From a virus (Duplodnaviria; Heunggongvirae; Uroviricota; Caudoviricetes): 4,536 nucleotides of DNA. The DNA lies in the IMG/VR virus record IMGVR_UViG_2802429244_000007. The stretch is one strand, 5' to 3'. Every line of letters starts with the position of its first letter. Position 1 is the first letter of the stretch. Both the position numbers and the translations under genes were made by a program. Below are positions 1 to 4,536 of the stretch, piece by piece. The notes below the pieces were generated by a model. The model ran no database searches. It was not told the DNA's origin and saw nothing but the letters and a program-made list of their open reading frames with translations.

Positions 1-24
1 AATAACAGCACATAATTTACGCAT
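1..24 (-). CDS. Start of a downstream ORF with a signal-peptide-like N-terminus (MRKLCAVI...), possibly a Lom/Ail-family outer-membrane protein; only 8 codons fall in the window
   Basis: ATG at minus 24-22, preceded by GAGAGG (plus 30-35, read on the minus strand) with a 5-nt spacer. The frame is open to the window edge and reads M-R-K-L-C-A-V-I. In lambda, lom follows J after a ~60-nt gap and its product begins MRKL... as I recall. Eight codons are not enough for a firm call. Confidence 0.3.
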
Positions 25-45
25 AATTACCTCTCGCTTTTCTGC

Positions 46-72
46 AATAAAAAAGGCGCCATTTCTGGCGCC
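46..72 (-). terminator. Probable rho-independent terminator downstream of J
   Basis: Minus-strand RNA would read GGCGCCA-GAAA-UGGCGCC followed by UUUUUUAUU. The stem is plus 55-61 paired with 66-72 (7 bp, six of them G:C), loop 62-65, and the T-tract corresponds to plus 46-54. It begins 20 nt after the J stop codon. Confidence 0.55.
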
Positions 73-91
73 CGTATCTGGGTTATAAAAT

Positions 92-3000
92 TCAACTGAT
101 ACTGATACCAGCTGTAGATTTCTTCATCACAACAACAAGAAGGTCGCTGATACTGGTCGTTGGCGTCCAGTTATTAGCACCATATGAAGAAACATTGAAA
201 GTCAGGGTGACATGGCCGTGTCCGGCAGGCATATCAATGACGGATGAAAATACCCTGCTGACATCCGTCGCGGGTTGCTGAAAGATTTCCTGTCCGTTCT
301 TCAACACCTGCAGCTTACAGGTTGAATACCAGTATGACTGTTGGTTGTTGCTGTTGAAGTTTTCATGCTTACCACCGCGAAACAGAACGGGTGGGATTAC
401 TATCTGACGGTCAAAAGCCTGGTCATCGTACACAGTGACCGTTATTGTACCGCTGGCATAACTGCCATTTCTCGGAAAGGCTTTTCCCACCGTTTTGACA
501 ATATCACCTTCAATCTGGTTGGCAGACAGTTTTCCCAGAATCCGACAGTTCTGGTTAATCGTGACATTGTTGAGCGTCCCGGAGTTCGCATTCACGTTAC
601 CGCTGATATCGGCATTTTTCGCCGTCAGCCGCCCGTCCGGTGTCAGGGAAAATACCGGAGGATTACCGCCGCTGGTAATGGTTGGCGCCGTCAGATACTT
701 CAGGAACACTTCGTTCATGAATATCTGGTTGCCCTGCGCCACAAACATCGGCGTTTCATTCCCGTTTGCCGGGTCAATAAACGCGATACGGTTAGCGGCA
801 ACCAGGAACTGGCTCAGTTTACCTTCCTCCGTATCCTCCATGCTGAGGCCAAGCCCCGCGACATAATGCCTGCCGTCTTCGGTCTGCTCAATTTTGACGC
901 CCCACATGGCATTCCATTTATCGTTGGCATCTTTCCACTCTTTCGAAAACTCCTCCAGTTTGCTGGCGTTATCCTCCGTCAGCTCGACTTTTTCCAGCAG
1001 CTCCTTGCCGAGATGGGATTCGGTTATCTGGCCTTTGAAAAAATCCAGATAGCCGGAAGCATCATCGCTCGCCTGACCGACAGCCTCCACGAATGCCGAT
1101 TTGCCAACAGTATTCACACTGCGGATATAAAAATAATAATCATGGCCCGGCTTAATATTGATACTGGCAGCTATCCAGTACAGCGCCGTGCCAAGATAGC
1201 GGGCTGTGGTTTCAACCTGCCTGATATCCGCAATCCGCTTTTCCGAGAACCAGAATTCAAACTGTACCGTCGGGTCATAAACGGCAAGATGCGGCGTTGC
1301 GGTTATCTGAAAATAGCCCGGCGTCAGATCAATCCTCGACGGTGCTGCCGGTGCGGCAATCCGGAACGATACCGATGCCGGATCGCCCTGCTGCCCCCAC
1401 GCATTTACCGCCCGGACTGTCAGCCTGTAGTTCCCCAACGCCAGTTGCGTGAATCGGTATGTGGTTTCCGTCGTCCTGGCCGTGCTGACCAGCCGCTCAC
1501 TGCCGTCATCCGCTGCCACGGTCAGGCGAAGCATAAAGCTCCCCCCCTTCACCACCTTCGGCGTATCCCAGCGCGCCAGCACCTGATATTCCCCGCTGTC
1601 TGCGGTGACTTCTGCGGTCAGGTGCTGCACTGCTGGCGGCGTGACACCATTCACCGTGCCGCTCTGGTCGCCGTCAAAGTGCGCCCCGTTATCCACGATG
1701 GCCTCTTTCTCCGGCACATGCTGCACAGCGGTGATGGCATACGTGCCGCCATCGTTCTCACGGATACTCACACAACGGAACAGGCGCTGGCGCAGCGTCG
1801 GCAGCTTCAGCCCCCACACGCTGTATTCGGCTATCCCGTCAGGCACCCGGCTCACTTTCACCTTCACGCCGTCGGTGACGGACTGGACCTCCACGCTGAC
1901 CGGATTACCCTGACCGTCAACCAGGCTTATCAGCGTGGTGCCGGAGGATGGCAGCGTGATTTCACGGTCGAGCGTCAGTGTCCGGGTCTGGCTGTTCACC
2001 GCCAGCACGCGCCCGCCGATGCTGATCCCCGCATAGTCATCATCACAGATTTCAATGACATCACCCGGTACATGGCGAAGCCCTTCGGCCCCCACGCTGA
2101 AGTCCACGGTCTGCGTTTCCAGCAGCTCCGTTTTAATCAGCCACAGCCCGGCGCGGTGTGCCTGCCCCCGACTGGTACAGCCAAAGGCATCCATCTTCGT
2201 GACGTTACGACCGTAACGGGCAATGGCCTGCGTGTCCTCCACAAGCTCTGTCGCCGTCTCCCAGCCGTTATCCGGGTCAATCCAGTTCACCTCAACGGCA
2301 TTATGGCGGTCCTTCAGGGCGCTGAAGCTGTAGCGGAACGGCGCGCCATCATCCGGCATCACCACATTACTGCGGTTATAGGTCCACACCTTATCCGACG
2401 GTCGGTCCTGCACGAACGTCAGCGTCTGCCCGTTCCATACCGGCATACAGCGCATCGACGAGCAGAAATCACTGAGAACATCCCACGCCTTACGCTGTGT
2501 GGTCAGGTAGGCATTACAGGTGATGCGCGGCTCCGTGCCACCAAAACCGTCCGGCACCGACTGGTCGCAATACTGGCCGATGACATACAGCGCCCATTTG
2601 TCCACATCCGCCACACCAAGACGTTTCCCCATGCCGTAGCGCGGATGGGTCAGCATATCCCACAGACACCATGCCATGTTGTTGCTGTATGCCGGTTTAA
2701 ACGTCCCGTCCCAGATACCGCTGTATTGCCGCGTCTGCGGGTTATAGTTCGACGGCACCTGCAGAATGCGCCCGCGAAGATGATAATTACGGCTCACCTG
2801 CTGACTGCCGAACTGTTCCGAGTCCACCTGCACGCCGACCAGTGCCGTGTTCGGGTAGCACTGTTTCACATCGATGATTTCGGTGTATGACGACCAGAGC
2901 GTTTTGTTCTGCAGCTGGTCTGTGGTGCTGTCCGGCGTCATCCTGCGCATCCGGATACTGAACGGGCGCGGCGGCAGGTTATCCACCACCACCGAGGCCA

Positions 3001-3550: not shown

Positions 3551-4198
3551 TCATCGACCAATCACCACAACCTGACCACCATCCCCTTCGTCTGCCGTGC
3601 TGATCTCCTGAGATACCACGCGTGACCCCACGCGCATTTCACCGTACAGAACGGGCAGAACATTCCCCTGGGCAACCATGTTATCCAGTGAGGAGAAATA
3701 CGTGTTCTGTTTGCCGTTATCCGTTGTCTGTGTGCGGGGAGTTCTGGCTTTCGGTGCCAGCATCTGCGCCACACCGCCCAGGATCATACTGGCCCCTGCC
3801 GCATACATACCCGATACAGCCGCGGCACCCAGCCAGCCCACAGGGTTCCACCATGCCACCGCAATCAGCGCAGCCCCCAGCACTGCCTGAAAAACACCGC
3901 CACTTTTGGCACCCGCCAGACGCGGTACGATGTGGATCACGGCACCATTTGCCAGCGGCTCATTAAGACGGGCAGATAATTCGTTTTCGCCTGCATCACG
4001 CCCGGCAATGCGCACCTGATACCAGCCCTCATTCAGTTTCTGACGAAACGCCGGGAGCTGCGTGGCCAGCGCCCGGATAGCTTCGGCTCCCGTTTTCACA
4101 CGAAGGTCGATGCGGTGGCCAAATCGTTGCAAATCCCCGTAAAGGCAGATGCGTGCCATGCCCGGTGACGCCAGAGGGAGTGTGTGCGTCGCTGCCAT
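3551..4198 (-). CDS. I: Phage tail assembly protein I (lambda gpI-like)
   Basis: 215-aa ORF with ATG at 4196-4198 (minus) and TGA stop at 3551-3553. N-terminus (MAATHTLPLASPGMARICLYGDLQRFG...) and C-terminus (...KARTPRTQTTDNGKQNTYFSSLDNMVAQGNVLPVLYGEMRVGSRVVSQEISTADEGDGGQVVVIGR) match lambda gpI as I recall it. The Gly/Ala-rich hydrophobic middle segment seems shorter and divergent. A possible SD (GAGAGG, minus strand, at 4210-4215) sits 11 nt upstream of the ATG. It lies between K and J as in lambda. Confidence 0.9.
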   Translation of the reverse strand: MAATHTLPLASPGMARICLYGDLQRFGHRIDLRVKTGAEAIRALATQLPAFRQKLNEGWYQVRIAGRDAGENELSARLNEPLANGAVIHIVPRLAGAKSGGVFQAVLGAALIAVAWWNPVGWLGAAAVSGMYAAGASMILGGVAQMLAPKARTPRTQTTDNGKQNTYFSSLDNMVAQGNVLPVLYGEMRVGSRVVSQEISTADEGDGGQVVVIGR

Positions 4199-4536
4199 TT
4201 GTCGGTATACCTCTCTCGTTTGCTCAGTTGTTCAGGAATATGGTGCAGCAGCTCGCCGTCGCCGCAGTAAATGGCGGCATGATTCGGCACCGATGAACCA
4301 AAGCAGCACAGCAGCACATCGCCCGGCTGCGCCTCTGTCAGTGCGGCACGGTAAAAACCAGTCGCCTCCATATTGTCAAGATAGAGATTCTGGCCGTTAC
4401 GCCACCAGTCATCCCCGCGATGAAAATCCGGCATCTCAATTCCCGCCAGATGGTAAGCGTCCCGGAACAGCGTGTAACAGTCCGTCACCCCGTGCTCAAA
4501 GCGCCGCCCGGTGAGATGCGGCACACAGCGGAACTT
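4096..4536 (-). CDS. K: Phage tail assembly protein K (NlpC/P60-type Cys/His peptidase fold), partial: N-terminus lies beyond the window edge
   Basis: Open frame on the minus strand runs from the window edge (4536, codon-aligned, reading KFRCVPHLTGRR...) to a TGA stop at 4096-4098. The ORF-track 'M' at 4524 is actually a GTG codon inside the frame, so the true start is upstream of the window. The translation has a Cys (DCYTLF) and downstream His residues (NHAAIYCGDGELLHH) consistent with an NlpC/P60-like catalytic set. Its 3' end overlaps the start of the next gene by ~103 nt, as K does with I in lambda. Assignment rests on recalled similarity to lambda gpK and on synteny. Confidence 0.85.
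   Translation of the reverse strand, partial: KFRCVPHLTGRRFEHGVTDCYTLFRDAYHLAGIEMPDFHRGDDWWRNGQNLYLDNMEATGFYRAALTEAQPGDVLLCCFGSSVPNHAAIYCGDGELLHHIPEQLSKRERYTDKWQRRTHSLWRHRAWHASAFTGICNDLATASTFV

Follow-up and report, generated by a model that had tools for sequence, protein, structure and literature searches.

The first 91 nt of the window, by which we mean the whole 4,536-nt stretch of DNA that was analysed, very probably form the intergenic junction between J and lom in a lambdoid Escherichia prophage or phage, in which a Rho-independent terminator follows J and is itself followed by the start of lom. This is an ordinary, already annotated J-terminator-lom junction of lambda-like E. coli prophages, and as such it is already known: the arrangement is the one that textbooks give for J and lom of lambda, RefSeq and GenBank carry annotations of it, and it occurs in about four fifths of the complete E. 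coli genomes, often in multiple copies. For annotation, the junction places the window at the distal end of a lambdoid tail module; past position 1, lom and the side-tail-fibre genes are to be expected. The point of biological interest is the transcription of lom in lysogens despite a strong terminator 21 nt upstream of its start and with no visible promoter.

Layout of the window and gene J

The minus strand of the window carries the distal part of a lambda-type tail module (Table 1); the Q gene and the late promoter of the element lie outside the window. Gene J contains the Pfam domains FNIII-A_GpJ, Phage-tail_3, Ig_J, Ig_J_second, Phage_Tail_Tip and Ig_GpJ_C (all E < 1e-34), and the solved structure of lambda J (8iyk_J) matches its product over the full length. 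The J proteins of the E. coli relatives are 95-98% identical to that of the window but not identical, and the window was therefore taken to come from a slightly different mosaic. In J, the C-terminal part that binds the receptor (residues 713-1132, window 92..1354) matched the "A8 gpJ 713" chains 9wca and 9wcb with E 6e-256, and wild-type lambda J 713-1132 (8xcj) more poorly, with E 1.2e-205. Since this part is closer to A8 gpJ than to lambda J, the receptor specificity of the window's J may differ from that of lambda. An 849-aa ORF with a TTG start runs antisense through J (341..2890, plus strand); its product is rich in Arg and His and of low complexity, and it is most likely a by-product of the codon composition of J, not a gene.

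Table 1 Features of the window, in the order in which they are read on the coding strand
Feature	Position	Strand	Basis or remark
Partial NlpC/P60 peptidase, K homologue	4536..4096	-	
Tail assembly protein I homologue	4198..3551 (ORF as listed)	-	Start annotated in relatives lies further downstream
Gene J, tail-tip attachment/host-specificity protein, 1132 aa	3490..92	-	ORF list and Pfam; TGA stop at 94..92
TATAAC hexamer, weak -10-like	87..82	-	Absent from the promoter scan; 9 nt upstream of the hairpin
Predicted terminator stem-loop, GGGCGCCA-GAAA-UGGCGCCU	73..54	-	Terminator scan, folding and covariation
U tract	54..46	-	T6 at 54..49, then ATT at 48..46; also the mosaic joint to stf in lom-less phages
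Shine-Dalgarno sequence of predicted lom, GAGAGG	35..30	-	GAGGT core complementary to the 3' end of 16S rRNA
Predicted lom, first eight codons (MRKLCAVI)	24..1; ATG at 24..22	-	Identity from relatives with identical DNA

The predicted terminator hairpin after J

The hairpin lies in the sole intergenic gap of the coding strand, 3' of the stop codon of J. Its stem was observed to consist of seven strict Watson-Crick pairs (72..66 with 61..55) and a closing G.U pair, which makes six G-C pairs, one A-U pair and one G.U pair in all, around the loop GAAA at 65..62. The initial annotation had described a GC-rich hairpin with a U6 tract about 20 nt after J, and about 20 nt further on a strong Shine-Dalgarno sequence and an ATG opening the reading frame MRKLCAVI. 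All of these elements are present on the minus strand, with an exact U6 and a distance of 18-19 nt from the stop codon to the hairpin, and the two distances that it gave were right to within 1-4 nt.

The hairpin folds with -15.7 kcal/mol (z = -4.1), and none of 200 shuffled sequences folded as well. When both strands of the window were scanned under strict criteria (7 or more perfect pairs, 5 or more G-C pairs and 6 or more T among the following 8 bases), the hairpin was the single match, and none of 300 dinucleotide-preserving shuffles contained one. A looser scan, which found 6 patterns where 3.7 were expected, still ranked it first. In GenBank, the phage 21 record (OL657228.1) annotates a nearly identical sequence as a terminator. 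A permissive Rfam search of window positions 1-400 found no known RNA family; two chance-level matches lay far below the gathering scores, one to Atu_C8 (19.5 vs 50 bits) and one to a human lncRNA fragment. Anatomy, position and covariation (see below) thus support the prediction that the hairpin is an intrinsic (Rho-independent) terminator, as had been proposed for it. A bidirectional terminator was considered and rejected, since on the plus strand the hairpin is followed by CGTATCTGGG, which is not a T tract.

Conservation and covariation of the hairpin

Conservation of the junction was observed in 161 J-lom junctions collected by searches of phages, E. coli and IMG/VR, which reduced to 28 distinct sequences. 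In these 28 variants, 94.2% of the cells of the 8-pair helix were standard pairs, compared with 38-60% when the 3' partners were slid by 1-3 columns. Compensatory double substitutions were found at three stem pairs, namely G-C to A-U (10 variants), C-G to U-A (6) and A-U to U-A (5), and G.U intermediates were present as well. Neither the covariation score nor the number of doubly changed cells was reached by any of 500 shuffles. Judged by this pattern, the hairpin is under structural selection, with the structure rather than the sequence being kept.

All variants share one layout: stop codon of J, hairpin, U tract, A(G/A)AGGT and ATG. The U tract is nearly invariant, A(G/A)AGGT is kept in all 28 variants, lambda included, and, with the exception of 3 of 158 loci, J stop and ATG lie 61-70 nt apart. 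The layout is kept with other hairpin sequences in three or more lom subfamilies and in lambda; in the loci of the MRHLY type of lom, for example, the hairpin GGGCACC-UCAGGA/CGAAGU-GGUGCC has the same architecture with a different stem and loop.

Some smaller features of the junctions were also recorded. In locus L142 (IMGVR_UViG_2861069343_000003), the segment equivalent to window 73..54 retains the palindromic arms GGCGCC and has the loop AUUUCU instead of AGAAAU. It folds equally well (-14.8 kcal/mol); with its loop reverse-complemented, this hairpin appears to have been inverted in place. The block TTATAACCC between the J stop and the hairpin (window 74..91) is kept across different J ends and two lom types, reads TTATTAACCC in the MRHLY-type loci and is absent from lambda. 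The 6 nt that abut the hairpin are GATACG, TATACG, TATAAG or TATAAT among the relatives.

Identity of the ORF behind the hairpin

The ribosome-binding site is separated from the ATG by the 5-nt spacer TAATT, and the gene runs past position 1 of the window, so its identity was observed in relatives. The window's last 700 nt on the coding strand match E. coli chromosomes at 98.4-98.6% over the full length, with "gpJ" and "Ail/Lom family outer membrane beta-barrel protein" as the annotated features; all of the closest chromosomal matches have the gene annotated as an intact Ail/Lom gene. E. coli NZ_OX030728.1, in which a prophage encodes the Ail/Lom protein RefSeq WP_001551182.1, does not differ from the window in the last ~100 nt and agrees with it at 98.6% over 700 nt; the start codon and the first eight residues are the same, and the ORF there encodes 199 aa.

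This 199-aa ORF (L001), from DNA identical to the window across the junction, matched Pfam Ail_Lom (PF06316) with residues 1-199 of 199 at E 1.9e-120 and a score of 400 bits, the cut-off being 23. Among solved structures, it matched the chains of Lom (9wso_C, E 1.7e-48), OmpX (1qj8/1orm, about 5e-20) and Ail (3qra, about 7e-18), with homology to the OmpX/Ail/Lom barrels spanning the whole mature protein. Its C-terminus (...VGYKF) ends in the Phe typical of outer-membrane barrels. OmpX of E. coli and Ail of Yersinia are eight-stranded barrels homologous to this protein; however, the protein scored below the NCBIfam equivalog cut-offs for OmpX (105.8 vs 176 bits) and for PRK15240.1, "resistance to complement killing" (118.8 vs 258 bits), and should therefore be a Lom-type paralogue, not OmpX or a PRK15240.1 protein.

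MRKLCAVI comprises the n-region and the beginning of the h-region of a signal peptide. In a manual reading, the N-terminus of the relative, MRKLCAVILSAVVWLVAAGTPASA|AEHQ, divides into MRK (n), LCAVILSAVVWLVAAG (h) and TPASA|AEHQ (c, with an A-x-A site). The mature OmpX and Ail chains align from about residue 25-29 of the 199-aa protein, which places the cleavage after residue 24. The N-terminus thus has the anatomy of a Sec signal peptide of about 24 residues, in agreement with the signal-peptide-like character first noticed in the eight visible residues.

For an unbiased sample, IMG/VR was scanned for exact copies of the 54 nt that run from the U tract through codon 8, so that relatives were chosen by their DNA and not by their protein. 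This gave 120 loci, and the end of the ORF was visible in 113. An intact 199-aa ORF was found in 107 of the 113, while the remaining six had ORFs of 21, 47, 64, 133, 152 or 359 aa. With such a proportion, the chance that lom is intact in this element is about 95%. Altogether, the relatives support the assignment of the ORF at 24..22 as lom, predicted to encode an outer-membrane protein of the Ail/Lom family. The family membership that the initial annotation had suggested was borne out end to end in the relative with identical DNA.

Comparison with phage lambda and function of Lom

Phage lambda (NC_001416.1; J 15505-18903, lom 18965-19585) has the same order as the window and its relatives: K, I, J, hairpin and U tract, GAGAGG, ATG of lom, second terminator and stf. 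The J stop and the ATG are 61 nt apart in lambda and 67 nt in the window, which we regard as the same spacing. The 3' end of lambda lom, the second terminator and the start of stf are nearly identical to those of the window's relatives. However, the lambda hairpin after J, CGUCCG-GGAA-CGGGCG followed by U4AUUAU, is unrelated in sequence and folds with -9.7 kcal/mol, and lambda Lom (206 aa) is only 44% identical to the 199-aa protein. The comparison with the lambda J-lom arrangement drawn in the initial annotation thus holds because the layout is the same, though the hairpin is different.

Two papers (PMC1151598; PMC7067206) cite an outer-membrane location of lambda Lom and its adhesion to buccal cells. 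In lambda, lom is dispensable for plaque formation (PMC10695390), and its regulation has been described as little understood (PMC2147009). A recent proposal gives Lom a role in anti-adsorption or superinfection: in a study of 2025, its overexpression strongly protected against lambda-vir, and it was suggested to limit non-productive adsorption late in infection (PMC12366544). A solved lambda Lom is present as two chains in PDB entry 9wso, and this structure may bear on what Lom binds. A literature search for the paper behind the Lom chain of 9wso found none, and J is not among the chains of 9wso as far as the structure matches of J show.

lom as an optional cassette

Both presence and absence of lom were observed at this site. 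The matches in the phage collection (94-98% identity) break off in the query at window position 46, where the U tract ends. Phage 21 (OL657228.1) and Lambda_4C10 (LR595861.1) have a J 3' end that is 95-98% identical to that of the window and the same hairpin and U tract, but they lack lom: the sequence ...GGCGCCTTTTTTATT, with the U tract as TTTTTTATT, passes directly into TGTGGAGTGAATATG, where stf, the side-tail-fibre gene, begins with its ribosome-binding site. This lom-less junction was covered to at least 80% in 1,226 of the 5,426 complete E. coli genomes, Nissle 1917 included, and the best matches listed were single-piece matches at 100%. The lom-containing junction (window 1-120) was found in 4,456 of the same 5,426 genomes, with 2 sites per genome as the median and 13 as the maximum.

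On the 3' side of lom, a conserved 3' UTR and a second terminator precede GTGGRGTGRATATG of stf in about 140 of 158 loci and in lambda. The second terminator, GCCCGYC-GGUUCA-GGCGGGC with U6 (-15.5 kcal/mol), lies about 30 nt past the lom stop and beyond the window. As delimited here, the cassette is made up of the ribosome-binding site, lom and the second terminator, inserted between the J terminator and the start of stf with both joints at U tracts. Three lom types, and also the absence of lom, were found with the J C-terminal type of the window; conversely, nine or more J C-terminal clusters accompany the lom type of the window. A coupling of the Lom type to the J receptor-binding type, which one would predict if exclusion by Lom were limited to kin phages, was therefore rejected, as the types reassort freely.

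In two loci (L137 and L021), the sequence 5' of the hairpin is unrelated to J, and in L137 the break falls within the 5' arm of the hairpin (…TTACACC-AGAAAT-GGTGCC). With breaks at or inside the hairpin, the terminator itself can be regarded as a joint for recombination or insertion. One more locus (cluster J4) has an upstream ORF whose end we take to resemble that of a transposase.

Promoters, moron status and expression of lom

A TATAAC hexamer on the minus strand had been noticed at about 80-85 as a possible -10 element of doubtful role. It is present upstream of the hairpin, although its exact position is the one given in Table 1, and the doubt was justified: the best -35 at a spacing of 16-18 nt matches 3 of 6 positions, and the conserved final T is missing. 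A consensus promoter scan of the minus strand over the whole window found no promoter-like site. Manual checks of TATAAC, of the hexamer GATACG that abuts the hairpin and of TTGCAG/TTGACT past the U tract found no credible -35/-10 pair.

The initial annotation had further suggested that the locus is a lysogenic-conversion (moron) locus if the element is a prophage. The moron definition of Juhala et al. (2000), as quoted in PMC7067206 and PMC6469090, names a position between genes that are adjacent in related phages, a sigma-70 promoter of its own upstream that makes expression independent of the phage programme, a factor-independent terminator of its own downstream, and expression from the repressed prophage. 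The position was found as described, since J and stf adjoin, with the same terminator, in phage 21, Lambda_4C10, Nissle 1917 and others, and the second terminator beyond the window provides the downstream element. An upstream sigma-70 promoter was not seen in the sequence of the window, where a non-consensus promoter could still be present. The moron label for lom is thus only partly supported by these sequences. Since no sigma-70 promoter was found and the U tract is separated from the ATG by only 21 nt, the lysogenic-conversion part has no basis in the sequence here.

It has been reported that lambda lom is transcribed in lysogens (PMC1151598; PMC7067206), whereas one array study did not detect it and remarked on the scant knowledge of the lom promoter (PMC2147009). 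Two other papers, both citing Liu et al. 2013, state that lambda lom rises strongly late in infection (PMC12366544; PMC9836094).

For the element studied here, termination efficiency, Q read-through and lysogenic expression are matters that we infer by analogy with lambda. The lambda Q antiterminator carries the late transcript through terminators. In lytic growth, the Q-modified RNA polymerase from the late promoter would read through the J hairpin and would also pass the second terminator after lom, so that lom and the side-tail-fibre genes would be expressed. The stf genes downstream are structural genes of the late phase, so late transcription has to pass both terminators. Unmodified polymerase would stop at the hairpin; in a lysogen the region 3' of J should therefore be insulated, with lom expressed only at a low level. 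The product, Lom, would be made as a precursor of 199 aa with a Sec signal peptide of about 24 residues and would form an eight-stranded beta-barrel of the Ail/Lom/OmpX family in the outer membrane, and the U tract would act as the recombination joint at which variants of J, lom and stf reassort.

A more far-reaching idea, which we consider quite unlikely, is that the J terminator is a conserved recombination joint that shuffles the J receptor-binding ends, lom alleles and stf and at the same time the site that sets lysogenic lom transcription, via calibrated leakage or a weak abutting promoter. If true, transcripts from a weak promoter abutting the hairpin would start inside it and so could not form the stem, which would explain lysogenic lom expression despite the lack of room for a promoter between terminator and ribosome-binding site. 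It would also tie in with the report that overexpressed Lom blocks lambda infection (PMC12366544).

Alternative explanations

The main task of the hairpin could be to protect the 3' end of the J message or to act as a barrier to its processing, or the hairpin could simply mark a boundary between modules that recombination has kept. We consider this unlikely as its main role, and it is compatible with the terminator reading. The hairpin is present with or without lom, so its role is independent of lom; the late genes stf and tfa downstream need transcription through it; and the mosaic joints fall exactly at or within it, both in L137 and L021 and in the phage matches. However, an uninterrupted U6 directly after an 8-bp G+C-rich stem is a specific signature of intrinsic termination, and a plain stabiliser needs no U tract, yet the tract is nearly invariant. 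That hairpin, ribosome-binding site and ATG stand together by chance is refuted and retains next to no probability. All that can be said for it is that loose terminator patterns arise randomly, as the small excess in the looser scan illustrates; the unique match under strict criteria, set against the empty shuffles, decides against it, and so does the arrangement itself, which is conserved and shows covariation across hundreds of loci and thousands of genomes.

Two other explanations concern lom itself. If TATAAC or the -10-like hexamer abutting the hairpin were the lysogenic lom promoter, transcripts would partly read through the hairpin or start inside it. Such a promoter would account for the transcription reported for lambda lysogens (PMC1151598; PMC7067206); the U tract and the ribosome-binding site stand too close together to leave space for a promoter. 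The non-lambda junctions keep TTATAAC/TTATTAAC, and the abutting 6 nt are TATAAT, TATAAG or TATACG in the variants L153, L024 and L014. We nevertheless regard it as very unlikely. The abutting hexamer of the window, GATACG, matches the consensus at 3 of 6 positions, the -35 of either candidate matches at most 3 of 6, the conserved final T is missing from TATAAC, and the minus-strand scan was empty. Moreover, lambda has neither motif, and a transcript started at TATAAC would reach the terminator within about 30 nt. It is slightly less probable still that the ORF at 24..22 is a disrupted or truncated lom, either a pseudogene or interrupted by an insertion sequence, that yields no functional outer-membrane protein. 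Six of the 113 loci with the identical start do have ORFs of another length, but the other 107 are intact, as are the Ail/Lom annotations of the closest chromosomal matches. The preferred reading is therefore that of a J terminator followed by the start of an intact lom.

Distribution of the lom type

Among species-representative genomes, close relatives (76-96% identical) were found in E. coli, E. albertii, E. ruysiae and Shigella flexneri, and by these matches lom of this type is an Escherichia/Shigella prophage gene. Matches to Lom at 44%, the level of lambda Lom, were also obtained in assemblies of unrelated organisms, among them Neobacillus, Kitasatospora, Pseudomonas, Shewanella and Bradyrhizobium. 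Several of them lie on low-coverage contigs of about 48.4-48.5 kb, and these matches in unrelated organisms look like contamination with phage lambda control DNA, not native genes.
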